This document shows, one piece after another, positions 35,651 through 60,824 of a stretch of 64,000 bases of DNA. The notes beneath the pieces were generated by a model. The model had not been told where the DNA came from and did not search any database. It saw only the letters and a program-made list of their open reading frames with translations. The position numbers and the translations under genes are program-made. The stretch is taken from positions 1,054,001-1,118,000 of the forward strand of contig CM039000.1 in NCBI GenBank assembly GCA_017499595.2. Reading direction: 5' to 3'. Numbering within the stretch: position 1 is the stretch's first letter; every line of letters begins with the position of its first letter. This stretch comes from Psilocybe cubensis. Taxonomy: Eukaryota.

Positions 35651-36399
35651 TATGCCATCAATTGTTGGCACGTTGTTTGTTGATGTCGGTGTAACCAAAC
35701 AACTTGGGTATGCCAGTGTTTATACTGGTTGAGAAGTTATATGCTTCTGGTCTTGCACCGTGGCAAGCAACAATCTCAGAAAACCATTATATCAGAGTAT
35801 ACGGCCACAATGCCAATAAACCACAGAATAATGTGCAGAATAAGTGGAAATATAAAATTGATTTACTTATTCCGAATGATATATGTTCTAGGTCATTAAC
35901 TCTTAAAGGTGACCTAATAGTGTTGGAAAATGGGTGGGATATTTGTCTTTACATCGCCGCGGTGGGTGGAGGATTCAGCTAAATAATAGATCACTATACC
36001 TTGGTAATAGTTCTGACAGTTGCGTTGGACTCAATGGATTTAATTTAGATGAAAATAGGAGCTTCCAGTAGTAGTTTACTTGTACATCCCAGTCTCACAG
36101 CGTAAGCGTCACCCCCAGCAAGGCCTGATTGCCACCGGCAATCTTTTGTGAGTATACCAAATGGGAAATGACCCAAAAATGGAGACAAACAGAGAGAGGG
36201 TCACAATGCTCTTGATTTTACCCAGTTGCGTTAGTTGATGTTGGCAACCTAAATATGTACAAGTAGTGGAAAGAGTGGTTCATTTCCAGGTCTTGCGACT
36301 GGTGTAATATTTTCCCTATATAATTACCATGTATGCCTAGAATCGACTGGCTGGCCATTACAATCCAAGCTCACACTACCCGTAGCGAGCCCTTGCTGG

Positions 36400-40528: not shown

Positions 40529-41113
40529 TTGCTTTGTGGGTATCTTTGAGTTTGAGTTTCATTGTTTTTTTGTTTTTTTAAAAAAGGAAGAAGGAAAAGA
40601 AAGATTATACTGGTTGTATAGTTTTAATTTTTTGTGTTTGAGACAATTTACGGGACATTGTATTTCTACTGGTACTGGCTTCCTTTTTTTGTTGACAAAT
40701 AATTACTTACTTACTTGAACTTGAACTTGACGATGTATTTTTTTGTTCTTGGCCTTGCTGTAAGTAAGGTTCCCCTTGGTCGAAATTACCTATATATAGT
40801 AAGCGAGCGTTATTGAACAACTTATTTATTTGCTTTTCTGTGTTCCGCCAAATATGACCATACAGTTTACCCTACGTCTCTCCCTGGTTGATGTGTCCTC
40901 TTGAACAACTTGTTTACTCTTGTTTTTTAACGATGGCGAAACCTTGTGTCTTGCTCATATCTTTATTTCCTATCTCCGCTTGCTTGGGGTTGCTCTCCAC
41001 GCCTGTACACCTCCGATGCTACAGTTTTTCTATATACGATTCGCGCTTAGTGCTCCTTTACTGTGCGTCAGGCTATTTTGGCAATTACTTCAATTTAAGG
41101 GACTGTGGTGCTA

Positions 41114-44100
41114 CTACATGTGACTGCTACTATCCACACCGGCGAGCCCTTGCTTTTGCTCCCATTGCTTCCGCGTGATCTCGTTCAACCTCTCCATCCT
41201 TATCATATCCTTCCGAAGGTCCTCGCACGGATGGTGTAGGAATAGTTCCTCGTCAAAATCTCGCAGCAGTCTGATCGTGTCTCTTCCTCTGCTTCGTGAC
41301 AGGGCAACGTATGTCCCAAAAGGTGACAGCCTATTGGTTGGAGGCTTAGCTATGTCTATGATCACGTATTCTATTGTTTGTCCTTGCGCCTTGTAGTCTG
41401 TAAATGCGTATCCTGCGGTCATTGCATACTGTCTTCTTCTGCCCTTATACAGTATCTCATCTGACTTGTTTTTTATTATGAATGGTTGTTCTGTGGGTGT
41501 TATTGGAATGAGCCCTTTCGGTATTCCTTCGAATTGTAACTTGGTTCCTCTATCGGGCCTAAACAGAACCATGGCAGGTGGATACCGGAGTTTCACCACT
41601 CCTTCCTCGTCAGCTTGAAGGTCTTCATACTCCCTGTCATCCAGAATGATATCCTCTATTGTTCCCCTTGTCCCATTGGCTATTTCTGCCTCTGTTGAAA
41701 TATTTAGTAAGACCATTGCTTTCATGCCGACTGCCAAACTTATGACATCTGGCAGCTTCCCTACGTCTGCCTTTGCCACGGCTAAACGTCCTCGTATATC
41801 GAATGGTCTTTCCCATTCTCGATCGATATCTTCGGCCCTTGCCACATAACGTATGTTTCCGCTCTTTTTGCAATGCTTGATTATTGAATAGTCGTTCCAA
41901 GCTTCGCGCACTGTATGCCTTGGTGTAACCAGAATGGCATCCTCCCACGGCTTAGAATTGAAATCAGGTTTTTCACATTCTTTCTTGCTGAGTACCAGTC
42001 TTTTGATTTCTGATATATCTTCATCACCACAGTCGCCAATCCTCAACCGGTTCAGTATATCACTCCACCCCTCATCCCTGACCCTTATTTGCTTATTGAG
42101 CATGACCACAGTCTCAAACTCTTTGAATATGGATCTCCCTATGGCCAGCATCTTTCCATCATTTTCGTTTTCGACATAGAGTGGTACTCCTTTGACCGGA
42201 GGGAATTGATGGAAGTCACCTGCAAGTATGACGTGCATACCGCCGAAGGCATCCTCGACACTTCCCTTGAACTCCTTTGATCTGACCGATCCAACGACTT
42301 CTGATACTTGGTAAATCAGTCTCTTGTCTGCCATAGATATCTCATCGATGATTAGGAACTCTTTTCCTCTAATATTTTTATCTCTTTTGAGGATTGTATT
42401 TGGCTTCGCATTTTCCAGCCAGTCGTCCTGATAAGACGTGTTTCTCGCAATCCCTGCCCATGAATGCAGGGTCATACCCCCTATGTCCGTTGCTGCAATA
42501 CCGGTGGTTGCACATTTGGCTAGTATGTCTTCTTTACCATATAGCCTGAAGGTTTCTGTAATCGCCTTAATCAATGTAGATTTTCCAGTACCCCCTTGGC
42601 CCAGCAGCAGCATTTGTAATGGTTCTGCTCTACCACCTATATGCCAAGGTCAGCTAGCCGTTTTCTTTATACATTTGAATGATTTCCGCACTCTCAATGA
42701 ACTCCTTCAGTTTTTCTTCTATTATGGCATGCGCTCTCAGCTGCTCTTCATTTAACATCTCCAAGTCCTCTCGTCGTCGTACACCTGATACACTTCTTAT
42801 CTCCGCTTCGATTGCCACAGTATCCAAAACTGGATTTATGCCTGGTAAATCCTGTCCGCTTCCGGCTATCACTGCTGCTGTTATAACCTCAGCAGTATTT
42901 CCTTCTGCAGCCACCGTCTTTGTCGTTTCTTTAAGTTGCCGTTCCCAGGTACGTATTTGCAACATGTCATCTCTATTTGCTTTCTGAGCGCATTTGTTCC
43001 ACTGTACGCCCATCTCCATGTTGCTGATATCTGTGTCTTGGAATATACCAGCATCAAAAGCGTGAGCTATTGCACTTTCTCCAAACAACCTTTCTCTAAC
43101 GTTCTTCTTAGCAATTCTGGCTCTTTCTATATCTTCTTCGGTAATCGGAGGTCCTTCTACTTGTCTTGTATCTTCCATATCCTCATTCGGTTCCATGTCT
43201 TCTTCATCCCAAGCCATGTCTATGTTATTCCCTCTCCTCAATTCTTCCTCTGCTGCTTCCGCTGCTCGTCTAGCCTTTGCCCCATCTGAACATTCATAAT
43301 AATACTGGATGTTCTGTACGGTAACATGGACTCGCCTACTAGCCTCGGCCATCATTGCATCAAAGGCTGCTTGAAAGGTCGGGTTATCGCCTTTCAACTG
43401 ATCCATTGTGGTCCATGGCTTTAGAAGTAGCAGCATACATGCGCTGTAAAACTCTTGGTCGTTCTGATGGATACTGTCATTCCTTGGAAACCATTTACCC
43501 ACAAATCTGGGCACTGTCTCTGAGCCATCGGTCTTGATGACTCTGCATAATCCTTCCTTCCTCGCCCCAGCCTTATATTCGACTCTATCATTTCTCGGTC
43601 TCCCCTGTCTGGCTTCAGTTTCTCCTTCAACGATGTAGCTCTCCTTTGGTTTCAATGCCTTTCCATCATATGTGAGTGTCATGAAGTCAAAGAAATTCAT
43701 GTTCGCTAATGCATCTCCTCTGAACGTATAGTCCTTTATTTGATCTTTCATTACCATTGATCCATTCACCATGTTCATGGACCCTTTCTCCTTATGCTAT
43801 ATTTGGTATGCTTAGTGTCTCATCAACTACAGTTGCATATGAACTTACTTGGCCTTCTTCAGACATTTCTCCCCCATTTGCCGCTCCTAATCGTTGATAC
43901 CTTCAACCCATTGTTCAGTGAGGTCTCTATTTTAAAAAGTGACTACTCACATTGTTTGTCCAAGTTCTGGAAAAGTCTTCTTCAATGCACTGACAGCTGA
44001 ATCCCAGTAAATAGCTACAAATCTATGGGATTCGTACACATCGCCCCATCCCATAATGTAGGTTATAACTTCCGGTGCGCTGAACTCTCGATGACGAGTG

Positions 44101-47100
44101 AGTGCATTAGCACATCTTTGTATTAGCCTTTTGTTGATAAGATTAGCGTCGGTTTGTAGTCTGTCGTTCTTTTTCCCAAAAGCCAGTGTTGTTGCAAGGA
44201 GTGCCGATGTATTGGAAGATCGTTGCTGCTTCTTTGTGGCATAATTGGTTATATAGTAAGTGATAGTAGCTGTATCTGTACCACTGAGTATCATTTTGAT
44301 ATCATGGTTAGCTCTAATACACTCCATTACAGCAGGATTGAAAGAATTGAGCATATCACATAATCGTTTTGGTCCCCAATGTCCATGTTCGTCTACAAAA
44401 GCCCTAGAAGCTGTAGGGAAGGGAGCTCTCCGTTTGCATACCTGCAATCCTTTCACGGTTTTAAGGCAAGTCGTTGTTGAGCATGTATGATATTGAAGTG
44501 CTCGAACCAGCTTGCCCAAGCCTAGCTTTCGCTCGTTTATAGTCATGGTCCTTGGGTCTGTAGGTCTAGAATATGACACACTAGGTTCTTTGGGCATGTG
44601 TTGTATCTCTTCCTTGGATTTCCCGTCAATGTCTGCGCTTATTGTCTTGGCGATGTATGCTTGCATTTTGGATCTGAAGGACTCTGACTTTAAAGCTGTC
44701 TTCATCTCACTGGCTGTTGGCGCATCCTTCAGCCAAATCAGAGTATGCAGATGAAGCGTGCCTCTCCCTTGAGCCTCCACTGTTCCCACATAACCCTGTA
44801 CTTTCCCTAGTACCCCATACTCTCGCTTTGGTGGACCTTGTGGTTGCTGTGTAATACCAAACAACTCCTCAAAGACAGTTTTAACTATAAAATGAAAGTA
44901 TTCTGCTGAAGCAAATGGATCTTCTGCGATGTTCTGAGCCCTTTGAATATGATCTGGCCCAATATGCGGATCGAATCTATCAAGGTCGATGTCGAACACA
45001 CCTGCTAACACCTGTGCTAATGGATCCTGGGTATCTGCTGGATTTATTGTGATCCATAATGAAGGCGGGTTAAACAGTAAATTCATCCCCCAAATTTTTG
45101 ACCTGACGATGTGCCTGCTCTCATCAGTACCTTGCACCCTCCTTCGTACGGCGGACATCTCCTCGCGTAATGCTCTCATAGCTGGATTGCTATGACCTCT
45201 GCCTTGAGCCTCTTCTTTACTGGCTTGCTCCATATCCGCTGGCTTCAAGGTGTTTATCAGGTTTATGTTGCGAGTGAAACTTGACTTTTTCATTTGTAGC
45301 ACGGCTGCACGGCACACTTCTCTTTTCTGCATGACCCCAAAAACTTGGAAAGGATATTGATAGTCCAATCTGAACCGACGATCATGGTATTCCATAGTCC
45401 ATCTAATATGGGTTTCATATGGGAGATTGATTTCTCTTTCAACCTCTATACCTCCGCGCCCATAGGGGAAGAGGGTTGGGAAACATCCGAGGAGATGATT
45501 AGGATCACTAGGTCCTCCATCATTTCGCAGCTTGGTCTTCTGGTCATATCTTGGGTATTCGTTGACAAATGCACTGCCTTGTCGGATAGTAAATTCATCG
45601 GTTCCTCTATCCTTCTCAATAGCATTGGCTAAAGCATGTGTCATCAGCTCATCGGTTGTAATATCCTCCCCATTGATGTCAACGATACCCAAGGCTTGCA
45701 TGGGAATAACAGCGGGTTCCATATCGCTTGCTGAAACAGCCGCGGAGTCATCTTATTCAACATAACCTCATAATTCCTTCAGTGTTCCGAGGAGTTTATG
45801 GATTCACGTACCAGTCATATCCTCCACTACTTCCACTAATCCTGCCTCATTCAACGCCTCTTGAATACGCACTATCCACTCAATGTAAGTGGCTTATTGT
45901 ACTATGCACAGAATGTAAACTTACCTTGTTCATCAGCTGCATCTAGTGGTATATACCCAGCATGTTCTCTCTCCACCGCAGATATGTTGTCTGAAAATTT
46001 AGCAGCTAGAACCAACTCGTTTGGTACCGCGTCCTCAGGAAACAAAGCTAGGGCTTCTTCAGATATCTCTATGTGAGGATTGTGCTGCTTCAACCACATA
46101 AGAGCCTCCCTGACTTTTTGCCTTCGTACTCTGAACATTTTTGGCATTGTAGCTTCTGTGAGCCCTCTTGGTCCCACAAATGTTATACCTATTGTAGCTG
46201 ACAGTATCTTCGGGCTAGGTGGATATGATAGTCCGTTCACCATGCTAGCCACCTGTGTCGGATCAAGGCGATAGGTGGATACATTTCCTCTTAGCCCATT
46301 GTGCATTCTACTTCTGTCCCATGAACGTGCGCCTCTTTGCTTCGGGAAAAGCTTTACAATGTATGCCGCGCAGAAGTATTTGGACACTAGAATCCTTTCA
46401 GGTAATGTCAACCCCTTGCGCTCTTTTGGTATGTCCCCAATCCATAAATCGTTCACTAGACTGAATTTTGGCCGACAATTTCGTTTAAGGGAATTCAAAC
46501 ACTCGTTGCAAATGTCTATTGTCGTTTCGTTGCCGTGCAGTGATTCTTTATTCAGCAGGATACCGTCGACTAGATACTGTGCAGGATGCGGAGTTATGGG
46601 TTCTAAATGTCTTTTGTTGGGTATGTTGGCTATCTCTAGTCGGTTTAGCTGTTTTTTGTGCCTGTTTCGTGCACACGACCCACAAGTGTCTCTGCTTAAT
46701 GCATCGTTTCCTGTAGCGTCAATAAATTGAGCTATACACCCATTTATTTCCTCGTCCGTGGGTGTTCTGAGAAAATTGTTATGCTGGATCGGCTGGCTAT
46801 GCTGTCCCAAATCCACAGCAGCCTGCTCTACGTGCTGCCCTCCTGAATCATCCTCCACATTAGCTTCTAAGTTTTCCTCCGCCTCCACCTGTACCCTTTG
46901 TCTCTTTATTCTTCTCGTATTCTCCGTTGTCCTTTTCCTCTTTCTCCCGTGACCCTCAGATATTAGTGTAGTCGCTGAATTGTATATTGTTCCTATTATT
47001 TCAGGTGATAATTGTGTCAAGGCTGTGTATATAGTTGTTCTGGACACTCGTTCCTTTGCTGAAAGATATGCATGCCCACGACAGATACTCCGTAGATTAG

Positions 47101-47143
47101 CTACCGTAAGATTGTCGAGTATTTTTACCAGGTCTTCTTCCAT
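41114..47143 (-). CDS. Helitron-like Rep-helicase (DUF6570-like + HUH-Y2 Rep + PIF1-family helicase), spliced
   Basis: CGSC/CNEC with NDLWIGDIP..LTLPERIL..FRVRRQKVREALMWLK. CFPTLFPYGRGG, PSLWITINP, GTVEAQGRGTLHLHTLIW (HUH), YYITNYATK (Y2). GQGGTGKS, IIDEISM, GDFHQFPPV, YAFTDYKAQGQT, YVALSRSR. ORFs joined by GT..AG introns. Confidence 0.93.
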
Positions 47144-47362
47144 AGAATGTAGCGAGAATATTTGGTATGTCTGCACCAGCTTTGGACTTCGAGTAATTAT
47201 TTCGCGAACAGTATCAGGTCTTATTTGGTATACCCTTCGTAGATACTAATGGATCTACACTTCGTAATATTTATTTGATACCAACACGGTAGGTCCAAAA
47301 TAAAAGGGGGGAATTTGCTACTTGTCTCTCTATCTTCTTGCCATACATCCACTTACTCACTA

Positions 47363-48072
47363 ATGCAAACTCTCTCTTCCGATCATAAAGGACCAGAGTG
47401 GTGTACGGTGGACAACCTGGAGATTAGAGCCATGGGTATCAGACTTGATCAAATGAACATTGTAAGTTGTACTTTGTTCACGAGTTCTTAACATTTATCA
47501 GCACTAACGATTATCAGCCCGGTACCACAAAAATCTGTGCTTTCATTGGCGGTTGGTGTACAAGGTTACACTTTGTCAATGTACCGGCAATTTCTGGTAC
47601 ATCGGCCATATCATCACACAAGGACCTTGATGTTTGCCTTTGGTTGCCAAATTGCCCTTACCTTTTGCCCCACCTCACTGAGACCGACGAACATCGCACT
47701 GTTATCAAAGTTCCTTCATGGAAGCCCGAGTTTTGTTACATTTTTGTGCATTATAACCAAGTAACGTCCGGTCTTCTGTTCAAAGCATATGTTTCTGAGG
47801 TTTGGTATTAGAATGTACTCAAATCAATTCCTACATCCGTAAATCGCCTGGCAAGTACTCTGACCAACAGCCTTCAAACATTCTATGGAGAGATTATGGT
47901 GATCAAAACAACCCCTGGCTTCATGTTTGTTTTGGATATGGACGATCAAGATGGCATCATGCTTCCTTTAGCACTTCAGAAGTAAGCATATTGTCCCATA
48001 TTCATACTACTCCGTGTTATTTATCATTTGATCATTAGATTTCTCCGACTGCGGTCAATTTCTTCGATTTAA
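47363..48072 (+). CDS. Hypothetical ~180-aa passenger protein A (4 exons)
   Basis: Manual splicing gives an open frame: MQTLSSD...DQMNI|PGTTKICAF...VHYNQ|NVLKSIP...FYGEIMVIK..LDMDDQD...|FLRLRSISSI*. Divergent from RepHel, ATGs 220 bp apart. Confidence 0.55.
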
Positions 48073-48312
48073 TCGGGTTTCCCACGTATATGCATACACG
48101 GGCGCTTATATACTTTTATACTCTAAAGTAAATAGATCTGTCATTATTAGATCTTTACTACTTATATTGTTCTTAACAAACATGCATTCAAACATTCTAT
48201 GCAACCTGGCATAGATAACTTCAATTTATTGTGTTATTGCTACTAATACTCCGTACCAGCTCATACAATATTTAATGCTGATTTGACACGTAAAATTTCA
48301 ACTGCGTTCATA

Positions 48313-49338
48313 ATGGAGACTGCTCTCAGAAATAATTTTGGTACGTATAATTTCGTATAATTTCTGCTTAATCGCTGTGCATATTTACATTTTGCCTATA
48401 AGGTCGTCGTATGAGCCCTCCCGAGTTGATGTACCAAGTGGCTACACACTGTTCCTTGTCATCACTTGTAAACCTTGGTCACGCCGATATGAAATGGAGA
48501 CAAGTCGTGCTCAAGAGACTTGAGGATAGAGTACGGGTTTTTCTGGAACCTTTTATGAACAAGGGTTCTGTAGGCACCTTCTTAGAGCTCCTGTCTACAG
48601 AAGGTGCCGTTGTAATGGGTGCCTTGGTTAGGTGCATGTTGAGCCTCGATGACGACCACGACATCCTTCCTTCTCAAATAGACATCGTCTTACCACAGAG
48701 AAATGGTTACCAAATACCGTTTGAACCATTTTTTCGAAGGCTGGGATATGACCCAGATCCGGATGCATACTGGGAGGAGTATCCTGTAGGACTTGTTCCT
48801 ACTTGTAGAGACTGCCTTCGACTTATATCAGTGAGTCATTCAGAACATTATAATTGAAACTACTAACGAGCTACAGTCCACGCGCGGCAAATCTGTTGCT
48901 ATCTTCAGATCTAGGGTTGAAACAGTACTTCCCACGGTGCTAATGGGTGCTACAACTTCGCAGCTTTCAGTGCTATCTTCATCCAGCCTTTATTGTTTCT
49001 ATCCTTTGTTGCTTGCTAAAAAGGAATATCTCAGTATAATTGAGAATGTTTCTTCAAGGGACCTTCTTCCTTTCCATAACTTCAACTTCGGCCTCAAGTG
49101 TTTGGACGCTCATCCAACTTCTTGCCTATATGCTTGTCCTGTCAAATGGAGGAACTCTGGGTCATCGGCTATAGGAATCATGGCTTGGAACAATTCATCA
49201 GTAACGTCTTCGGCTGATCAGCAGTTAGCTAATGAAGATTTTATGTGGAGGAAGAATCGGTTGGGGTGTAGTAACCTAGAATGTCAGTGCAATCGACGAT
49301 CGGCAGATCTAACAGTTAGAAGTACGCTTATTTTCTAG
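48313..49338 (+). CDS. Passenger protein B: F-box-like N-terminus, degenerate nucleotidyltransferase-like domain, Cys-rich tail
   Basis: MSPPELMYQVATHCSLSSLVNL (F-box-like), GAVVMGAL...SQIDIVLP, TTSQLSVLS..LYCFYPLL, C-x3-C and C-x4-C near the end. Introns ~48341-48402 and ~48831-48876. Confidence 0.5.
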
Positions 49339-49476
49339 ATTAAACTATGATATTTATTTACTCAGTATGTCATAGCAACCGAACGGCTAATTAGCTCGTA
49401 TATATTACAGAACTTCCATGTATTGTTTTGAATACAGCCTCCTACTTCTCTCTTATAATTGTGTCTTATAACAATA

Positions 49477-50347
49477 ATGGTCAATATACGTGAGTACAGA
49501 TGCAAGCGCCTGTTAAGCCTTTCTCACGTCATGTAGGTAACTATCGTGACACTTTGTTGGTCAATCAAGACTATCTAGCATCTCCCCTTTTCTTGCCCAC
49601 TTGCTCCTGGTTGTTGGACTCTGCCGATAGGCATAGAGGTCATCTTGCCGGAGAGAGGGGTCAATATCGCAAGAAATGCAGAGTAGTGGGAGAACTTATG
49701 GAGACAAGCTTAAACGCTCTAGGGTTACTAGGCAATTACTTCGACGATATAGTGCCGCTTGAGACTGCACAACACAGGCTCTATTTGAAAGCCCCTGACC
49801 ATCCAAAGTATGGAAGCGACTTCAACACTGCATCCAATACCCTGGACATACTGCTCAAATCTATACCTGGCTTCACTCTTACTGAGGATGTTCGTTTCCT
49901 TCACAATTATAAAGGTTCTCGAGTGCTTTGTTTCTCAAGCCCTCTCTTTATACCTCAGGTACGCACATGCTTTATTATTTATTATCAAACAATGCTTATT
50001 CAGGCTGCTTGTCTTAAGACAATGTACTATTCATCTTTACGTTTGTCTCTTTTACCCAAGATTATTTGGTCAACGATGATACTTATGCTACTTTACCAGT
50101 GGACCTTGCAAATTATCAAGTTGACGCGGAGTACAAAGCATTGATCCAAACCATTCAAGGCACCCATATGCTTAGAAGACTTGATATCTACAACGGTATA
50201 ACTCAGATGCGTAGAAGACACTTACCTAATTTAGTAGGAAGACTTGTCGATGTTACGTTCGGCCTGTCCTACGACGAAGACTTAGGATTCGAGACCGAAA
50301 TACTGGTTATCAAAGCTTTGCCTCTTCCCTGGCCTAATCAGGATTAA
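49477..50347 (+). CDS. Passenger protein C: putative OB-fold/ssDNA-binding-like, related to 54803-56093
   Basis: Spliced ORF with VVGELM...LGNY and a C-terminal LDIYNG...LVGRLVDVTFGLSY..FETEILVIKAL that parallels gene F. Confidence 0.45.
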
Positions 50348-50990
50348 TACATCGTGGACTAGCGTGGACTAGCTGTAGTAGTTGTCTAGTACTAGGCGAT
50401 GGTTGTGAATAAGTGTGTTCTGTTAGATTTAGATTTTTGATTTACTCTGTTCACGATATTTTGTATGACGTACTAAGTCATACTCATATTATATGTGTGT
50501 CATATTAATGAATAGGTCAACGGCTTGTCCATTCAAATATCCAATTCTTACAACCGTTTAGGTGATAGGGGGTGTATTACTATATTTGGAACGCCTTTGA
50601 CATAATGCTTATCGAGTGGCTTGTTGAAGCAGTTTCATACTTCGACTCAAATTTCCTACGCTGATGTCAGTTCTTTCAATACGATGTATGTTTTCTGCTA
50701 TAGTAACGATCACGTAGACAGTCTTGACAGCTTCTGTGTACCAATCTAAGGTGTCTAAACTTATTCAAATATTGACTCTTCGTTGAATCTAATGAGCTTT
50801 CACAGCCTTGTAGATTCGACGCGTTAAATCACGTGATACTATTTACTTGTTTGTTCTAGAAGATGCTGCCGTGAAGATAACCCGTAATATGCAACCAATG
50901 CTCCAAACCTTCTACTACTCGACCTGCACCCTTTGAACCTCCCCCCATTAGACCACAATTGTATACCCGATTCTCCCCGCTAGTGGAACT

Positions 50991-52937
50991 ATGCCCGAAG
51001 TTCAAGTAACCCAGTCAATTGCAGAGATGATAAGGAGACGGAAAGGTATGGGCAAAGCCGAGAGTGAAGAATGCAAGTACTACGCTGAGTTGTTAGATAT
51101 ACTCTGTATGGTTTAATACATCTCACCCCCTCTAGTCTGCTTAGAAATTATACCTCTCACCCACTCAATGAAGCATCGGACGCTGACATGGCATGATATG
51201 CGCGCACATCCAATTTCAAGCTATAGGAGAGAAGACAACGATTGGTCGTACGCACCCTCATCGTGGATCAAGCGAGCTGATGAGTTCGGGTGGGCTCATC
51301 TCATGGCTAAAACTGACCCTGCCCCATTGTCATGCTTTGCAAGAGGAAAATTGATATGCCTTTATGCGGGTTGCAACCTTCTTGTCTTGTCTCCAGCATT
51401 AGAAACTAACATTATAGGAATGCCGCTTCAAACCTACCGTGATATAGCCATGAACGATTGCCCGGGTTCCAATAAAACCCGAGCTGAAGAGCTCAGGACG
51501 CTCGTCATCCCTAAGGAGTACGTGCGACCACACTCGTCTCGTGTGGATACCCCACGTACGATAAAAATCCTTGCAGCATTTGTGTCTAGGGACTGGGCAT
51601 GGGCCATCAATGATTTCTCAACCCTGGCACAAATGTACATTTTTACGAAGGATACGCCGTGGGATCGAGAATTGCGTCCAGGAACTTCAGTGAGTTTTGA
51701 AATTTTCATTTCCCCATTCCATATATTAAATTTGTTCGGAGTTATGGGACTTTGTATTCGCTCGTTTCACTGGTGGCCCTGACTGGTTTCTAGAGCCAGT
51801 GGATGCATTGCTCAAACTCCGTGAATGGAGGTCCTCAGTTTTGAAGGCTAGCAAATGTCACGAACGATATTGTCAAAAACAAATTTCAAGTTACTTCGGG
51901 TGAGTCGAGTCGTCCCCTTACCTGGAGTTCTCTTTCCCTAACAACGTTTAGTTTGGCGCCGCAAGAAGTAGACAGCCCATGCACTGGATATGGGTACAAC
52001 CGTCCTATCCTTCAAGAGCTGCTGAAAAATCGTAATGGATGCTTTGCAGGCATAGGACGTTACTCAGCAAATGATCTTTTGTACACACTAGGAATCTATC
52101 CCGGCACCCCCTCGCGTGTAATTTGCTCCGATCCAGCACTATATGCCGCTTTTGAAACAGGGCTGCAGAACTACCTGGCACAGTTTGGTACAGAACCTTT
52201 TTTGTCTCGGGCATCGTCTGTACCTAACACCACAAATCCTTTCGACTTTAACGAGCATTTAAACTCGGAATTTCTTAGAAAATGGGTGCTGGTCTATAGG
52301 AGATCAATGGCTGTAATGTCGGCTAAACTTTACAATTTTTACGCGTCGCGTGGACTCTTTGACGAAAACCATATCATAGGTGAGGGTCATCTCGTAATAT
52401 ATATTTTGTTTTGTGTTGATCCTTTTCGCTTAGGTGGTGCTTATGTACCCAACTGTAATCAATTGCTTGACATCAACCGACGCGTTCGTAAATATGTTCC
52501 AGTGTTTTTTTGTGAAGATCCTTTGGCTGCCTACACTGTCATTAGAGCTAAGATTCCGAGAGAATGGGGTTGTGATGTATCTAGGGTGAGTTGATTCAAT
52601 TCTACTAGTAACTAATAACTAACCGACGCTAATATTTCAGACGAGAGTTGTTGATGACATCAAGCGGTTCACATACTCTACCACCATTGGTACTGCACAG
52701 TTTAGGGTTCCCCTGGACAATCGCCCATTCTTCCATGATAAAGAGCCGGGTACCCTCATCATTGGCAGACCCAGAATCGTAGGTAATCTTCATTATCACC
52801 ATTCGTCATGAACTAATGTAAAGTTCGTCTTACGTCCGCAGGAACGTACAGGAAAAGTAGGTAGACCGAGGAAGGGTTTATCGAAGAAGAGACTTCTTAA
52901 ACTATACGATGTCCAAACGGGCAGAAAAGCGGTATAA
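50991..52937 (+). CDS. Passenger protein D: divergent Fpg/Nei-like DNA glycosylase/AP-lyase with C-terminal AT-hook-like motifs
   Basis: Starts MPEV (exon 50991-51105 splices in frame to 51136). Then ARGKLICL, AINDFSTLA, GGPDW, H2TH-like PILQELLKNRNGCFAGIGRYSANDLLYTLGIYPGTP, LVYRR, and IGRPR...KVGRPRKG. TAA 52935-52937. One junction needs a GAG acceptor at 51739-51741. Confidence 0.7.
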
Positions 52938-53179
52938 TATGTATGTATTATACAACAACATGCAAATTAAAATTTGTTAAAATTTGTTTCAAATCACCAC
53001 CCACTAAGTTCCCCTTGAATGGCATAGTTGTAATAAATACGATTGGTACCATTGCATGTCAAGGTGTTTATGACAATGCGCTGAACAGTATCATCTTGAA
53101 ACCTAAACCTTCGGTCAGTCTGATGTCTAGTTTAGTTAAAGTGTACACAAAGACTCACATTTGGGGCGGTTTAGGTGTT

Positions 53180-53281
53180 CTCCATATAGGAGCTTCACAT
53201 TTGGTCAGTGATGTATGTTTGAGGTGTTAGCTCCATATAGGAGCTTCACATTTGGTCAGTATTGTGTGTTTGAGGTGTTAG
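53180..53281. repeat. Tandem duplication of a 51-bp unit
   Basis: CTCCATATAGGAGCTTCACATTTGGTCAGT..TGT.TGTTTGAGGTGTTAG twice, with 3 mismatches. Confidence 0.85.
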
Positions 53282-53336
53282 CTTGCTACTGTATAACTGA
53301 ACTTGAGGCCTCCACCAACCAGCTTTTCCATCGAAT

Positions 53337-54680
53337 TCAATGTGCATCTATCTTCATTGTAATCGAAGATCCAAGTATTACCTTCAATAGATGATACCAT
53401 AGATGTTGGAAAATCAGTACCCGGAGCTTGTAAGTCCAACAGTTACTATCGCCGATGTGCCGAACCCCTTCAGGAAACAGTATTCGGGCATCCGATAAAA
53501 ATTTAACCCTGACAGTCTCTTTGTGCCCAGCTAAATAGTACGCGATTTTAGAGAGGGTCTTTTTCACCTGCGCCGCTTTTGTCTAGTATTCTTTGGCATA
53601 ATGGATCTATTGAAGAACCAGGTAAGGAATATACAATTCTCCATCCCGTACGATTGTATTTCAGGGCAGCTGTACGAGTTCTTCGCTTGGTCATTCCATT
53701 CATTAAGAGTGTGATCTTGTCGCCTGAATGAACTTGCTTTGGCTATCCACATGCGATTGTAAATGAAGGAAATCACCTAACGAGGTCCTAGGATATAGGC
53801 AATACATCTTGTCATAGGTAATAATATTCATCACTGCGGCTAAAATAAAGTTAGAAACATAACTAAGACTAAATAAAAGTCACTTAAATACTATGGAATT
53901 TGACAATAGATTCAACAACGGATCCATGGCAAGTGATCAAATGGAATTGTATTTTTCCTCGTGTAAATGTTAATATGGATCCACGATTACCGTGCCCCAG
54001 TTTGGTGTCAACGTTCCCTGGCCTGCTGAAATGTTCTAATGGCTTTAATTATGTTCCCGGAAAATGACATAAAACTGGCTATAATGGATGCATGGTGCAC
54101 TCACTTACCAAGAAACATTGGTGTCCGTAAGACTTGGCCGTCAACTGATATTCATATGGGTGTACTCATGGCTCAATCGACAGTATGCTTATCCGTGTAT
54201 CTCAGCCCATGAGAACTATGTTCTTTTTTGCAATGTTTGAAATTAATGGTGCTAATGATATTCATATGTCTGTGGGGGTTGAAACTAATTTAATATCATA
54301 GGTCATTGTTACAATGCTTATGCTATAAAAGAATCACAGTCGAGGGGGACAACAGTGGTACATTGCGTCCTCATTCGACTAATTATGATGGGAATACAGC
54401 CTTCCTGTCCAACCTATGCTACAGAGCAGACCAGGCGGGTGAACCTAGCATTATGGAATGCCAGAATGTCTTCTGTTCAATTCATAAGTTACAGTGTAGC
54501 TACAATGTTAGAATATTCCTACTGTGTAGTTTCCAACGACATAGCGCCGGGTACTTACCAAATAGGCTGTGGTTATTTCCTTATATCCCATGAAGACGCC
54601 TATCTGTGTTTGGTGTACACCTGGGTCTATCAGAAGGACTTTATTGTACTAAATAGGATATGCAAGGGATTCAGCATGGC
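53337..54680 (-). pseudogene. Passenger E: decayed member of the same family as passenger B
   Basis: Minus-strand fragments SIMLGSPAWSAL, LITCHGSVVESIVKFH|TAVMNIITYDKMYCLYPRTSL and VRHIGDSNCWTYKL, interrupted by stops and frameshifts. 5' boundary approximate. Confidence 0.45.
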
Positions 54681-54802
54681 TTTGGAAGGTATTTAATAGA
54701 CCTGTGTCGTATATACCATCCCATTAACAGCTGTGTATTCTTTCATTTCTTAACAATTAATCTCTCATCATCGTCAAGTGCAACTAGCGTCGTCTTATAA
54801 GC

Positions 54803-56093
54803 ATGACTGCCGAGTAGGTTCTACAACTTGAAAACTGTATAATATTGGCTAACGTCCTACTTAGTCAAACTAACAATGGTGAAGCTAATTTGCTGGTCGG
54901 AGCAGGTGGTCCCTTTACTAGGCAACAGATGCACGCCGATCCTCTTTACACTGCCAGAAAGGATTTTTCTGCCGGTGTCGTCTGGAAGAAGATTCGTGGG
55001 GTGGACACCCTTGTGGTCAACAATGGGGCCGATGGTCCAGTTGACATTGCTCACCCTGTATTAGTGGGGAGAGTATCTGACGACAGACCGTGGTTGGAAC
55101 CGCACGGTAGCTTCAATCCTAAGTACGATCCCGAGAAGGCCATCAAACAGGCTAAGCTGGCTATCACCGTTGTCAGCCCCATTGGGGATCCTGATTTTGA
55201 AGTCGATTTTACGCCGTCTATAAATTCGCTGATAAATGTGCAGAAAGCCATTGCCACTTCTAATATGCATCAGCATTTGTTGATATCAATTGGCGAAGGA
55301 ACAGGCATTCGCTTGAACTTCCCTATCTGGGAAAAGAAGGTAAGCATTTTCCCATATTTTCAGGCAGTTTTCCTTATATTTGGCAACACCATATAGACTG
55401 AACAAAACAAAGGTATGTTTAGTTATCAAAGATGCGCTAAATGATTATTCAAATTGGATATACAGATGGAGGGGCAGAACGTTTTACCAAATCGTATGCG
55501 GTCAATGATGAATGCGAGCCTTGGTTTACGACTATGAAGGAGAAACACTACATTAAACAATTCCCACTGTACGATTCAAAGGACGACTTGATTCAGGACA
55601 TCTCAGTCCTTGAGGATAAACTGGTGGGGGCTTTAGTAGAGGTTACTTTCTCTCTCAAGCATTACTACATCACCTCTAAGACCGATAAGCCCAATGATAC
55701 GTTCACAGCCATCATAGAAAACATCACAATCCTCAAACCCCCTCCGACAGTCTCACACGGGCCATACAGATCATTGTTATCACCCAAGAAGAAGCCGGCG
55801 CGAAGAATTCAAACACCTCTGGGCATTTCAACTAGGGGCAAGCAGATCAATGCTGCCAAATCTTTTATACCAGTACCTCAGCCCATTTTCACACCGAAAG
55901 GAACTGCTATAAATCCTTCGGGATCCGCGTCTTCGACGGCTTCTTCCAGCTCGTCTCACACTTTGGATGATTCCCAACAAGGTGAGTGTCGACATTGAGT
56001 CATTGAAACCGAGTGTTGATAAGTGCTTTAGAAGGGGATGAGAACGATGATGAAGGCCGCCAACAATCCCCCAAGAGACCTCGACTGGTCTGA
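54803..56093 (+). CDS. Passenger protein F: putative OB-fold/ssDNA-binding-like protein with disordered tail and NLS-like end
   Basis: Spliced: MTAD|QTNNG...VLVGRVSDD..LEPHGSF..AKLAITV...FPLYDSKDDLI...LVGALVEVTFSLKHYYI...DTFTAIIENITILKPP, a Ser/Pro-rich tail, then EGDENDDE...PKRPRLV* (TGA 56091-56093). Confidence 0.6.
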
Positions 56094-56269
56094 TTAGATC
56101 CTAATAAATTAGATTGTTTGTTCTTCGGCTATTGGATACAGATTAGATTGTTTGATAGACTTAGATTAGATTGTTAGAAACCTATAGTGACTGGACTGAC
56201 AAAGTTACGTAATGCCAATGCCCGACAATATTTATTTGCGAAATTGACAAGTACAAGTACTCCAATAGG

Positions 56270-57653
56270 CTATAGTCCAGAGCCCGATGGTGCAGATGGA
56301 TCATCTGGTGTCAGCTTGAGTCCAGGCAGCGGTTCTATATAAGGAGTGTCATAGTGTGATACACTCTCTACTACAGCGGGTTTGCTGGACCAATAGTCCA
56401 TATAAAAAGATGGTGCGGATACTGGGGAACTAGAAGTGGGAATGGTGTCAAATGAAGGTACCGGTGATAGCGGGGTTGGTTTATTGAGGTCCGGATATTC
56501 GGCTTCGGCGGTTGCTGAATACGAAGGGTCTACTACAGTACTGGCTCCCAAATCCACGGTACTGAACCTAACTTGTCTAACTGGTTGAGGTTGAGTGAGC
56601 GGTGGTTCTGGGTGCTTGTTGTTGACAGGCACCCGGTCGTCAGAAAAGAGTCCAGGTATAGCTGCAGCGATTGTTGTGTTTGTAACTAGAGAAGACAGTA
56701 TGGCCTATTTGAGTTTGTTAGTCAGCTTAAATAAATGTGAAGAGAAAGTTGAACATACCGAAAAATGAATAACATATATAATTAAGTAAGGGTGAATATG
56801 TCCTTGATGTAGATATATAACAAGGACTGCTGAGCTGCTTATGAACAGCAAGACATTACTACAGAAAGCTATTAGGGTGGCCTTCTGGCGAGTGTCCTTG
56901 AGTTGTTGGAAAGCCTCCCAATGCCCAAGAAACACCCAGTTGTGATACAACAATAACATATCAAAAAAACATTCAACTGGAATGTAGTCAGCAATGTGGT
57001 GATAATGTTGAGAATAAGGATAAAGCGGACCCATAAATGCACCGATGATAAGGGGTTTTAGTGGAATGCAAGCGCAAACGAGGTCTGTGCATGGTGACTG
57101 AACTACACATACAAATGCCGTGACGGACGCAAAGATAGAGCCCATGACTAGGATGATCACCGACAGTAAGCGCGCCCTGCTGACCACCGACGGACGTTCC
57201 TTCGTAAGACGTGTAGGAGAAAGAAGCAAGGAAGTTCTTGATAGGCTGAAGAGACATCACCTTATACTCGAAGATGAAAAGAAAAAAATGTACTCACCAG
57301 AGAGCCTCTATTGCCAAACCCAATTCCAACCTGTATCCATGCAAACTGACTACCCGTGAAGTGACTAGCGTAGACATCAGTAAGGGAGCATAAAGAGAGC
57401 AACTTAAGGATTCCTACCTATCACGTAGGTACGTACAAAAAAGTAGGCATTGACAATCATGGTGAAGACTGAAAAGAGGTCGTCCCACCAAAGAAATGAA
57501 CGTTTGATTCTAAACGATAGTCGAGTGTGGGTGAGGAGTATGACGAAGAGATGGCCTGCCAAAAAGAGGGCATAGGCTGCTGTAAGACACAATTCTATCA
57601 GTCATTATAAAAGAAATGAAACAACATGAAAACGTACTAAAAGGTAAGGTCAT
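56270..57653 (-). CDS. Passenger protein G: PTH11-like (fungal rhodopsin-domain) integral membrane protein
   Basis: ATG 57653. ILLTHTRLSFRIKRSFLWWDDLFSVF (RL..R....LWWDD motif), several hydrophobic helices in 56705-57229, Pro/Ser-rich tail in 56270-56632. Confidence 0.6.
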
Positions 57654-60600
57654 TGTGTAGGAAGTCTATTCAGGAGAACACGATTTTTGGTTGCTGTGGC
57701 TCCGGAACTGTCGTGAGAGAGTGTGTTGGAGAGATGTCCAGTCGGTCGCGTCGTGGTGCACGCGTCCGATATTGATCGTACTTCCTCCTGCTCAGTCACT
57801 ACCACACCAATAGCACTCATTCAAGAAAAGAAAACGAATATACTCATGTAACATAAACCAGCGGAGACTCTATACCAATACTTCACGACATATGAGGTTA
57901 TCAGCAACTAAACTCAGATAGACGTACGTTCAACCGTATATTTAGAGATAATAGAACCCTAAAACCTAATGTTAGCATGCAACAGAACAACTATAGGTCA
58001 CCTACCGAGACATTATACCTACTCTGTATACTGGAAGACAAAGTCAGTGTGCTAACGGCGGTCATTGAAGATTGAAATGGTCAAAAGGACGAGGCAAAGG
58101 GGGCGGGGGAAGGGGAGAATATATGACAGTGAGCGGGTGAGTCTACTAGTAGACTATGACAGGACAGGAAGTTACTTTTTTGAACAGAGTATTTCCCGTT
58201 TGCCTACTGCTGAGCGGTTCAGCATGTACGGAGTGGCCTGTGCCATCGTTGACAGAATGAACAAATAATGTCTACCCACAATTGAAGAAAGCTTGCGGGA
58301 GGAAGGAATGGAAGATAAGTAATGTCTATGATGCACAATTGTCATAAAGCTTACAATGCATGGACGGTACTGAGTGGGACAACGTAGATCGTTATACCGT
58401 GGTATTTGCGGTTTCTGGTTTGCTATGGATACACGACCCTTGGACTGACTGGGGCTTGGACTGACTGGGGCTTCAAACGATACAAGACTCTTGATAATCC
58501 CAAAAGAAAATAGCATCAGAGCCCATCTGGCAACACCTAACTGTCCATACACAAGCTTTAGGGGTAGTAACCAACACAATATCCAGCTAGCTGGGATTAT
58601 TGTGAACAAACCGATCGATCGATACGATACCGGACAGTGAACAAGTATTCAAACCACAGGGATCCTGTACCTAGAGAGAAAGGTCGTAACGAAGTCACTG
58701 GCTAACTTGAAAGGGTGGACTTACTGAAGGATTTTCCATACCTGAAGGATTATGGATCTCGGAACGGAATGCGGACTGTCTATTCAAAGATGTGGCCATT
58801 TTCAGTCATTGTGAAATGTGCAATACCCTCCAGACTTGTTCAAATCTTGGCTCTGGACCACCGATTGTATATACGGAGCAGTTGGCGTTACGGGTAATAC
58901 TGCATAGGGTATTGTAAATGGAGTAGGCGTCCTGGCTACTTGTTGTATTGGAAGGTGGACGTTGGTGGTATGGTGGTGGTATGGTGATGGCCGTCCAACC
59001 ATTTAGCATATCGCGTATCGACGGACGAGGTGTGTGAGCAATTTCTATGAATGTCTGGTTGAATTTGTTGATCCTTGCTACAGTATATTCTGGCAATATC
59101 CTACAGACCGAATGTTGGTTTACCTCGCTACTGAGTCGGAAGGGCATCGGTGTACGATATACAGGGGGGTAGAGAAGGCTGTCAGCGAGGGCATAGGCGC
59201 ATCGCCATACAGTGCTGCAGTGTAGAATGGTGTCGTGGTGATGTGTTGCTATCATTCAAGTGCGATGTATCAATAACTTGCACTTGGAACCAGAAATGTA
59301 GCTCAACGCACCGTTTTACCCCCAACGCGCACACCCAATGAAGCGTTACCACCCAACGCGCACATCGAAGCCTCCATACCGGCGAGCAAAAGAAGACACC
59401 TGTAATGTTGTTAGGATGTACAACCATGTCCAACAGCGAGTATGACCTGAGAAAACCATGACCTGCAAACACTTACACCTTTAGAGTACGAGACAGGAAA
59501 ATAAAAGGGGGCACACCAACAAAGCGTAGCGGTGGGGGTCAACCACATCAAATAGGAATAAAGGTGAGACTGAAAGGAAGATCTATGTGTTAGGAGTTGA
59601 TGCTGATGCAGCGTACCAGGGCCTTTGCAAATACCTAGAAGAAGGGAACGCTCGAGCATCATGTACAGATCACATGCCTGGTGGTAGGCCACACATTAGC
59701 ACTGAAGCCGTTCGGTTACCAAAAAAAAATGGGCCTATACAACCCAAACCATCATATATTAGGTCAGTACGTCACTTGGTCAATGTTGGAATATGTAGAC
59801 TTACGCGGAGGATATGTTCAAGTACAATAATTTGAACGATTTGTTCATGTACAAGTATTTGAAGGAAATACTAAACATCGCGTTATGCGAGGTTGTATTA
59901 AATTGATCAGAAAGATATCAACAATGTATTATATGCTTAAAAGGTATTATACCAATGGACATCCTACGTGTGTTAGGGAATAGCTCAGTCATCGAGCATG
60001 CTTCAACATACAATACTTACAGTATTTTGCAGCTCATAAGTGGGTAACAGTATGTCTACATCTACAAAGATGACTACTCTACGTACACCGAACTAGAAGT
60101 GTAGGACACGATGTATAAAGGCCTACAGGTTAGCATATATATAGAAGTACCCTATAGAAAGAAATAATGAATAAAGAGTCTTTAACGATGCACCGAGCAA
60201 ACTATCTGGAAAGCGTGACAGCCATTATTAAGCCATATTATGTGTGATACGTGTGACTAATAGGAATGACATGATTGGAGGCGGAATAAGCCAATGGGTA
60301 ATATGCGGAGAGTTGAATAGTCAAACTCTGAAAAGACGTAAAACAATGTTATTATCAAACTCAGACGGCAATAAATGATAACGCATCCCCCACTGTAGCG
60401 AATAAACAAAAAATAAGAAAATAATATAATAATAATAAGTGAAAAATAATGAAATGAACGTAAATTGTTGTGTCATATAACAAGCTCAGAAGCAAGCACA
60501 GCAAGGCCTTATTGCCACTGGCAATGCTTCATTACCAAAGGTGGACTAATGTACGTTAGTTACTCTTTAACACACAACTCTGCATGGACACCATGTATCA

Positions 60601-60824
60601 CCCCTGTCAACGTCTTGGGATATCATCAGTCATCCAATATTTTCATCGCAATTATTTAAACTTGAAGCGGGGTGTTAAATAACTAATGCTAATGACTAAT
60701 GGACACTAATGGACAAGGCATGGTGTAGAGCAACAAGCATGATTGAGTGATATTAATGCCGTACAAACAGAAAACATAGCGTAGTATACAATAATGGTAG
60801 GTGGATAGGATCGTTCAGAAATCA

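Follow-up and report, generated by a model that had tools for sequence, protein, structure and literature searches.

A probable 19.8-kb Helitron2-type transposon, polymorphic for presence in Psilocybe cubensis, with a recurring set of accessory genes

We analysed a stretch of 64,000 nucleotides (nt) of the Psilocybe cubensis genome (assembly GCA_017499595.2, contig CM039000.1, positions 1,054,001 to 1,118,000 of the forward strand), called the window below and numbered from its first letter. A block of 19,782 bp within it (40750-60531, plus strand) has the layout of a whole Helitron2-type element. The block contains a rolling-circle transposase gene, RepHel, on the minus strand (41114-47245), a series of open reading frames (ORFs) named A to F on the plus strand between 47.4 and 56.0 kb, and ORFs with multiple membrane spans on the minus strand between 56.3 and 57.6 kb, which belong to a region named G. 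Two public P. cubensis hypothetical proteins match this cargo letter for letter over the shared exons, and the genes are spliced. The block occupies a gap of ~640 bp and is wedged, as an initial annotation of the locus had described, between the convergent 3′ ends of two host genes; the left-hand one, on the plus strand, has a Senescence domain, and the right-hand one, on the minus strand, is of the ITFG1/TIP type. We give a probability of about 80% to the reading that 40750-60531 is a single autonomous Helitron2-type rolling-circle transposon with a conserved accessory module and lineage-specific additions.

The limits of the block were set by an empty site. Four public runs were mapped to 40650-60649 with a likeness threshold of 85%; X8 and X9 are raw-read runs with the same species label as the window, and X1, which stems from another study than the possible source of the window, is the run that carries the element. 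A joint from 40749 to 60532, which omits 19,782 nt, was found in 12 + 12 reads of X8, in 11 + 6 reads of X9 and in one X1 contig (limits of 40751-60532 fit equally, a 1-nt ambiguity). Sequencing depth was approximately zero between 41.3 and 60.0 kb in both X8 and X9, except for short patches at 42.5 and 45.3-45.6 kb. Since the reads skip the whole block, RepHel and all of A to G are present or absent together, and the joint falls at Helitron2 termini; the initial annotation, which had named an empty site as a check, was thus right to see one multi-gene rolling-circle element here, while its limits (40780-60400) have to be moved outwards to those given by the joint. The insertion site is T|T. 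Only 1 nt at the joint is common to both sides, and there is therefore no target-site duplication.

In X1, a contig of 19,804 nt corresponds to 40721-60524 with 0 mismatches, and the filled allele had a depth of 28.6 and the empty allele a depth of 52.5. Linked to the empty allele is a C>A difference at 60536, which X1, X8 and X9 have in common; because the empty form in X1 carries this difference, it represents a second haplotype of a heterozygous strain and not an excision product. The filled-to-empty depth ratio in X1 is closer to 1:2 than to 1:1, which is unexplained. At ≥ 85% likeness, the element-free strains yielded no reads for the cargo genes, so none of the cargo was copied recently from elsewhere in this genome. 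These results collectively indicate that the element segregates as a presence/absence polymorphism within the species.

Both ends of the block have the features of Helitron2 termini, the plus strand being the 5′ to 3′ strand by the terminal convention. The 5′ terminus (40750-40770, plus strand) consists of a T followed by a 10-nt asymmetric terminal inverted repeat (ATIR; 40751-40760), which lies 1 bp from the left end, has an exact 10-nt inverted match at 60499-60508 and is part of a stretch that could form a small hairpin. At the 3′ terminus (60499-60531, plus strand), the inverted repeat (60499-60508) ends 23 bp from the right end, just ahead of a hairpin (60511-60525) with a 6-bp stem and a loop of 3 nt; a tail of 6 nt completes the element. 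In Helitron2 elements, as excerpts of two papers describe them (PMC3627910, PMC5148889), the 5′ repeat lies 0-2 bp from the end and is accompanied by a 5′ T, and the 3′ repeat sits upstream of a hairpin, ~20-30 bp and at most 40 bp from the end; all our comparisons with published work draw on such excerpts. The ends of the block appear to fit this published definition, and the class was assigned from these termini. The block starts with TG and ends with CA, and its flanking bases are T and T, which does not match a canonical Helitron1 (5′-TC...CTRR-3′, with A|T insertion).

Sequences related to these termini were also found elsewhere. An 86%-alike copy that starts exactly at 40750 occurs elsewhere in all four runs, and in the element-free run X8 the last ~36 nt of the block had a depth of ~160 compared to ~38 in the flank. 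In addition, two contigs of run X10 (821 and 1334 nt) carry both ends only a few hundred bases apart, and these short contigs look like non-autonomous relatives. Inside the element, no copy of either terminus was detected; the initial annotation had considered that copies might end near 47.2 kb, and no internal terminus was found there, nor any sign of a shorter element ending near 47.3 kb. Upstream of the block, a related Helitron2 has left a lone 3′ end at 36116-36142 (92.6% identity over 27 nt to the right end of the element), with the hairpin kept and one loop base different, and no 5′ end to pair with it was found nearby. An ATIR-like match at 25735 lies inside a GC-rich coding ORF and was treated as chance.

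The RepHel gene was confirmed on the minus strand, opposite to the terminal convention; it has approximately four exons, probably begins near 47143 and stops at 41114. Its four ORF pieces gave Pfam matches to DUF6570 (1.3e-36), Helitron_like_N (2.8e-33) and PIF1 (7.1e-25), and the translations show motifs that we take to be the HUH-type, double-Tyr and Walker A motifs. From 47125 to 41159, RepHel is collinear with a 1923-amino-acid (aa) homologue without frameshifts, and its in-frame stops occur only in a stretch that the homologue lacks and that resembles an intron. Given this collinearity and the confinement of the stops to the intron-like stretch, RepHel looks intact. The nearest public RepHel proteins, from Phlegmacium glaucopus and Psilocybe cf. 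subviscida, are 56-58% identical. A reversed RepHel has been described for some Helitron2 members (PMC3627910, PMC5148889).

To the evidence from the empty site and the termini we added a comparison with related transposase genes. Metagenomes were scanned with a Rep-region alignment, which gave 80 loci selected solely for a RepHel relative (36-63% identity), and the cargo ORFs were searched against these loci by tblastn (E ≤ 1e-3). Homologues of A, B, C/E or F were found in 29 of the 80 loci. The flanks were short (median 1.7 kb upstream and 0.2 kb downstream of RepHel); among loci with a flank of at least 1, 2 or 5 kb on one side, 29 of 59, 23 of 40 and 15 of 24, respectively, were positive. 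By single query, matches were found in 6 (A), 5 (B exon 1), 2 (B exon 2), 3 (C exon 1), 11 (E) and 16 (F) loci. The exons of D and the pieces of G gave 0 matches in the 80 loci, and reversed-query controls gave 0 matches in the first as well as the second search step. When neighbouring ORFs from these loci were used as second-step queries, the union of positive loci rose to 40 of 80, a less strict count as these queries were picked by hand; the B superfamily was then found in 16 loci and E-type genes in 27.

The order and orientation of these genes also recur. The F homologue lies upstream of RepHel and divergent from it in 13 of 16 loci, and in locus L006 the genes A, B and E follow one another going upstream of RepHel, in the same order as in the window. 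In loci L018 and L019, the cargo genes come after RepHel on the same strand, as expected from an inversion of RepHel relative to the rest. Furthermore, an F-like domain is present at one end of two public RepHel gene models, from Amanita muscaria and Leucocoprinus birnbaumii. The ratio of nonsynonymous to synonymous substitution rates (dN/dS) was 0.27, 0.12 and 0.17 in the three of nine pairs with unsaturated synonymous sites, the other six pairs being saturated, and E/F had a dN/dS of 0.12-0.27 among relatives. In locus L010, a 23-nt match to the 5′ terminus lies at the expected distance after RepHel and 25 nt from the contig end, which is suggestive only. The accessory module is frequent beside related RepHel genes and not universal. 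Judged by this recurrence, none of A, B, C and E/F is a random passenger. Because A, B and E/F accompany related RepHel genes in independent elements and show purifying selection, the likeliest reading is that they serve the element itself. The stable accessory set that the initial annotation had proposed, as opposed to random gene fragments, is thus supported for these genes.

Several further observations were made on these loci. L018 and L019 are different records in which RepHel, A and B have equal offsets and identities; they seemingly hold the same element, which suggests a recently active or widespread copy. Three loci have large NACHT/NB-ARC genes with TPR or WD40 repeats next to related Helitrons (L026:9574-11427, L054:1760-5401 and L057:20387-21664), and L006:13173-14153 holds a Transposase_21 gene; these genes may be neighbours or cargo. 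Ten large flanking ORFs of the loci comprised NLR-type, kinase and Transposase_21 genes by Pfam, with no glycosylase or TET among them. Ten locus homologues of the cargo gave no Pfam match at E ≤ 0.001.

Gene A (47449-47982, plus strand) is oriented divergently from RepHel. Its conserved core (47518-47766) aligns with invariant columns C, G, C, P, L, D, W, L and P. Gene B (48402-49338, plus strand) has two exons, ~48411-48828 and 48871-49338. Its product is F-box-like at the N-terminus and Cys-rich at the C-terminus and carries a degenerate GS...DxD-like motif; L006 has a homologue of 361 aa without introns. A protein atlas placed B with unnamed Basidiomycota clusters (0.98), in which 10-11% of members have an F-box, and with Gad2 (0.90). 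The initial annotation had called B nucleotidyltransferase (NTase)-like. B carries a Gly-Gly...Leu-Asp-Ile-Val-Val-Pro motif in which the Asp varies, being His in the homologue at L018 and Glu in that at L008, and the NTase signature G[GS]-x(9-13)-D-x-[DE] is absent from the window copy, which reads Gly-Ala...Gln-Ile-Asp. The pattern Gly-Ser...Asp-Ile-Asp occurs in more distant B-like genes at L009 and L012, together with a sub-threshold match to NTP_transf_5 (E 0.073). The label therefore keeps a weak lead in distant relatives and loses its catalytic pattern in the window copy, and B may descend from a nucleotidyltransferase fold whose catalytic pattern has gone there. In a word-based protein search, B exon 1 matched only the public fused model discussed below.

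Gene C (49494-50347, plus strand) is a first paralogue of the gene that we call E/F (54818-55998, plus strand), which has two exons (E core 54908-55372, F core 55471-55917) and a basic low-complexity tail. E and F are continuous in one intronless 451-aa ORF at L053 and hence form one gene; the paralogy of C and F that the initial annotation had proposed is upheld, and its treatment of E and F as separate genes is not. C exon 2 is similar to F (E 0.007, with shared motifs), and C exon 1 and E match the same place in L029, from which it follows that C is a whole-gene paralogue of E/F. A public 444-aa model at 48313-50344 fuses B with C and splices out the most conserved motif of B. The homologues at the metagenome loci show B and the E/F-type gene to be separate genes. 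No stop interrupts the exons of A, B and E/F, and the residues conserved in their families are retained.

Structural searches gave no family for these proteins. Profile searches of PDB with B, with the E domain and with the F domain (an 18-sequence profile) found nothing significant, and a word-based protein search with F found no match. E shows no NTase motif and no similarity to B, so neither its earlier NTase-like label nor the proposed B/E paralogy was retained. For the oligonucleotide-binding (OB) or single-strand-binding (SSB) fold that had been suggested for C and F, there was no Pfam match and no PDB match with either a single sequence or the 18-sequence profile, and the sole structure model, of F from a two-sequence alignment, had a predicted local distance difference test score (pLDDT) of 41; this label is not supported. 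DNA self-comparison and tblastx detected no internal paralogues in the block, except for a 51-nt tandem repeat in the spacer described below.

Gene D (50991-52934, plus strand) has a predicted Fpg/Nei (NEIL1-like) glycosylase fold and an AT-hook-like C-terminus. An exhaustive profile-free search with D found 269 relatives (50%-identity clusters, E ≤ 1e-3), and the named ones that were looked up were all hypothetical proteins of Agaricomycetes (Gymnopilus, Lyophyllum, Hypsizygus, Pholiota, Amylocystis and others). Pfam recognised 0 of 30 full-length members of this family and 0 of 8 further members. When a 30-member profile of the family was compared with PDB, 24 sequences matched at E ≤ 1, of which 23 were Fpg/Nei proteins (NEIL3 5e-4, NEIL1 4e-3), and the matches to NEIL3, NEIL1 and Fpg run through the Arg-Gly-Lys strand and the H2TH motif, both of which are present in the window D. 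A model of a 46%-identical relative, built from 30 sequences, had a pLDDT of 81. All of the top 50 Foldseek hits for this model were Fpg, MutM or NEIL1 proteins, and its VIA-align comparison with NEIL1 gave a Z of 18.7 with a root-mean-square deviation of 2.8 Å over 251 residues, starting from residue 2 in both chains. The model has the two-domain fold with an N-terminal beta-sandwich, H2TH and finger, covering NEIL1 residues 2-290. In addition, 25 of 30 family members start with Met-Pro-Glu, and the window D keeps 57 of 70 strongly conserved columns. These profile and model comparisons indicate that D is a divergent Fpg/Nei glycosylase-fold protein and a predicted enzyme, as its earlier label of glycosylase-like had suggested. 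The likeness to human NEIL1 and bacterial Fpg (MutM) extends over the whole two-domain fold and includes Met-Pro-Glu, the Arg-Gly-Lys strand and H2TH, which the D family keeps; D differs from them in having only 12-17% identity, approximately twice the length, large insertions and the AT-hook-like tail.

D does not travel with RepHel in the way that A, B and E/F do. With 150 D-family proteins as queries, the 80 RepHel loci yielded a single marginal match (6e-4, L071), which was treated as chance, and a metagenome scan with the D-family alignment found no relative. As D is absent from all 80 of the related RepHel loci, it is a lineage-specific addition, and it was probably captured from the large unnamed Agaricomycete family described above. 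A nested transposon around D was considered and rejected, as there are no flanking inverted repeats. The DNA-processing theme that the initial annotation had read into the cargo thus finds its only DNA-enzyme fold in D, but D is not conserved with RepHel (0 of 80 loci) and the NTase and OB labels are not supported, so that this part of the earlier proposal is left weakly supported. The D family has several diverged paralogues per genome, with at least four in Hypsizygus.

Region G (56270-59255, minus strand) consists of ORF pieces with several hydrophobic spans at 56270-57601 and further ORFs at 58175-59255. Five G pieces gave no Pfam match at E ≤ 1, which is weak evidence given that the exons are short, and the earlier PTH11-like label is not supported; a Trp-Trp-Asp-Asp motif in G presumably resembles that of the PTH11-like family. 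The spacer between D and E/F (52935-54817) holds no convincing gene, and its ORFs gave no Pfam match. A 51-nt tandem repeat is present in it at 53169-53283 (2.3 copies, 91% matches).

We therefore describe the element as an unusually large, polymorphic and apparently intact Helitron2 with a conserved accessory module of three families and a probably captured NEIL-like gene. Its cargo would have two layers: a conserved accessory module made up of A, B and the E/F-type gene, the last of which is present twice (C and E/F), and a lineage-specific layer made up of D and the membrane-protein-like region G. As a guess, A, B and E/F might act as nuclear co-factors for transposition or for its control, and the basic C-terminal tail of E/F would fit a nuclear DNA-associated protein. 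Speculatively, D might remove damaged or modified bases from the element DNA or from its single-stranded intermediate. We consider it doubtful that the stronger version of this proposal holds in full, namely that A, B and E/F are a conserved toolkit of new folds needed for or regulating transposition and that a NEIL-like enzyme in addition clears oxidised, deaminated or modified bases from the element or its single-stranded intermediate and counters silencing by base modification.

A number of observations weigh against reading the block as an autonomous transposon with a conserved module. The element is single-copy in the carrier run, a second full copy was not seen in the runs mapped, and the mobility of the whole 19.8 kb is deduced from its ends and the empty site. 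In stability, the terminal hairpins do not exceed those of shuffled sequence; the predicted 5′ hairpin, an 8-bp stem with two G-T pairs, had a z of -0.9, and 35 of 200 shuffles folded as well. A, B and E/F gave nothing significant against Pfam and PDB sequences. The accessory genes in the metagenome loci are assigned to elements by their proximity to RepHel, and the closest long loci (L003 and L004, 62% RepHel identity) have no accessory genes in ~8 kb upstream. Finally, D has its Met-Pro-Glu at 50991 and an in-frame TAA at 51114-51116, and the public D model begins downstream, without Pro2 and Glu3; a candidate phase-preserving 90-nt intron at 51046-51135 would remove the stop. In Gymnopilus, the corresponding stretch is treated as coding sequence.

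Some of these points would suit a dead relic, that is, a lone surviving copy that has lost expression and mobility and whose cargo consists of decaying pseudogenes. The single copy, the in-frame stop in D, the ORF-free stretches at 52.9-54.8 and 57.8-60.5 kb and the difficulty that public annotation had in modelling B and C all point this way, as does the finding that RepHel at ≥ 85% likeness is otherwise represented in the three other runs by nothing beyond the short patches at 42.5 and 45.3-45.6 kb. A relic is nevertheless unlikely in our view, given a RepHel that is collinear with a full-length homologue without frameshifts, an insertion that is polymorphic and heterozygous in X1, the conserved columns kept by D, and the open exons of A, B and E/F with their family-conserved residues. 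We regard as less probable still a one-off transduction or composite, in which a short Helitron with only RepHel dragged along ~13 kb of unrelated DNA by read-through or nesting and the genes are passive. Bypass of the end is the standard model of Helitron gene capture (PMC6431247), a composite origin has been proposed for elements with a reversed RepHel (PMC5148889), and D and region G, which have no counterpart in the 80 related loci, may well have come in this way. Such an origin does not account for the presence of A, B and E/F homologues at 29 of the 80 loci, for the repeated gene order and orientation there or for the low dN/dS, and neither an internal terminus nor, at ≥ 85% likeness, a parental copy of the cargo in the element-free strains was found.

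There is also a very slight chance that the 19.8 kb is ancestral and was deleted from X8, X9 and one haplotype of X1, since presence and absence alone give no polarity without an outgroup. The breakpoints, however, coincide to the base with Helitron2 ends, these ends recur elsewhere and occur together on short contigs, and the joint is clean with at most 1 nt shared, none of which would be expected of a chance deletion. Weighed against these alternatives, a single autonomous Helitron2-type element with a conserved accessory module is the reading that we prefer.

Among known systems, the closest likeness is to Helitron2 (Bao & Jurka, 2013; PMC3627910) and to the FoHelis of Fusarium oxysporum (Chellapan et al., 2016; PMC5148889), which share asymmetric inverted repeats, a 5′ T, a RepHel that is reversed in some members and short non-autonomous derivatives with the present element. 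They differ from it in gene content, as the FoHelis are described in the excerpt with at most one extra ORF (FoHeli3), compared to 19.8 kb with approximately six further genes here, three of them recurring. The HELPO1 elements of Pleurotus ostreatus (Castanera et al., 2014; PMC4289320) resemble the present element in carrying one to four whole gene-like 'cap' sequences whose function is not known and in showing presence/absence between haplotypes, and homologues of capB adjoin RepHel in a few other basidiomycetes (PMC4289320). Unlike the present element, HELPO elements have T[C/G]...CTRR ends, insert at A|T and are no longer than 13.7 kb, and their cap genes lie downstream of RepHel (PMC4289320). 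One of capA to capF, which are known here by description only, may belong to the same family as A, B or E/F. Fungal Helitrons are given as 6-7 kb, growing to ~14 kb, and whole-gene capture is called exceptionally rare (PMC6431247).

Two further systems provide precedents for accessory proteins. TET/JBP genes are carried by fungal transposons, among which is a Helitron2 from Agaricus bisporus (Kojima, 2025; PMC12730594). As in the present case, a transposon of Agaricales is combined with a base-modifying or repair-type enzyme that is dispensable for transposition, and these enzymes have been proposed to counter methylation-based silencing (PMC12730594). In contrast to them, the element described here carries an Fpg/Nei fold, with no TET/JBP Pfam match on the ORFs tested, and an anti-silencing role for D is speculation. 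Helitrons of plants, cnidarians and fish that encode RPA-like single-strand-binding proteins (PMC6431247) are a precedent for a conserved accessory protein that travels with RepHel, whereas A, B, C and E/F gave no RPA or OB-fold signal in Pfam and PDB sequence searches. Our literature search found no paper that links Helitrons with an Fpg/Nei gene, also when fungi and transposons of Basidiomycota were included; nor did it find a paper on Helitrons of P. cubensis or on a conserved accessory set in Agaricomycete Helitrons, with which published supplements may overlap.

With 19.8 kb and both ends fixed to the base by an empty site, the element exceeds the fungal sizes quoted in the excerpt of PMC6431247. 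Its three recurring genes, which are under purifying selection, suggest that rolling-circle transposition in mushrooms has accessory proteins that have yet to be described. The element also exposes a large Agaricomycete family of the NEIL1/Fpg fold (the 269 clusters above) that Pfam does not see and of which one member lies on a transposon. If the stronger proposal were true, the toolkit would correspond, in fungi, to the RPA-like genes that plant Helitrons carry, and the glycosylase would offer a second anti-silencing route alongside the transposon-borne TET/JBP enzymes. The presence/absence polymorphism provides a natural pair of genotypes for asking about the activity of the element.

Outside the element, the window contains two tandem segmental duplications, 6134-8742 with 9624-12242 (82%) and 14000-16267 with 17045-19342 (73%). 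A cluster of inverted repeats at 30.0-35.7 kb, upstream of the element, also matches the 6-12 kb segments, and all of these probably represent other repeats or a gene family.

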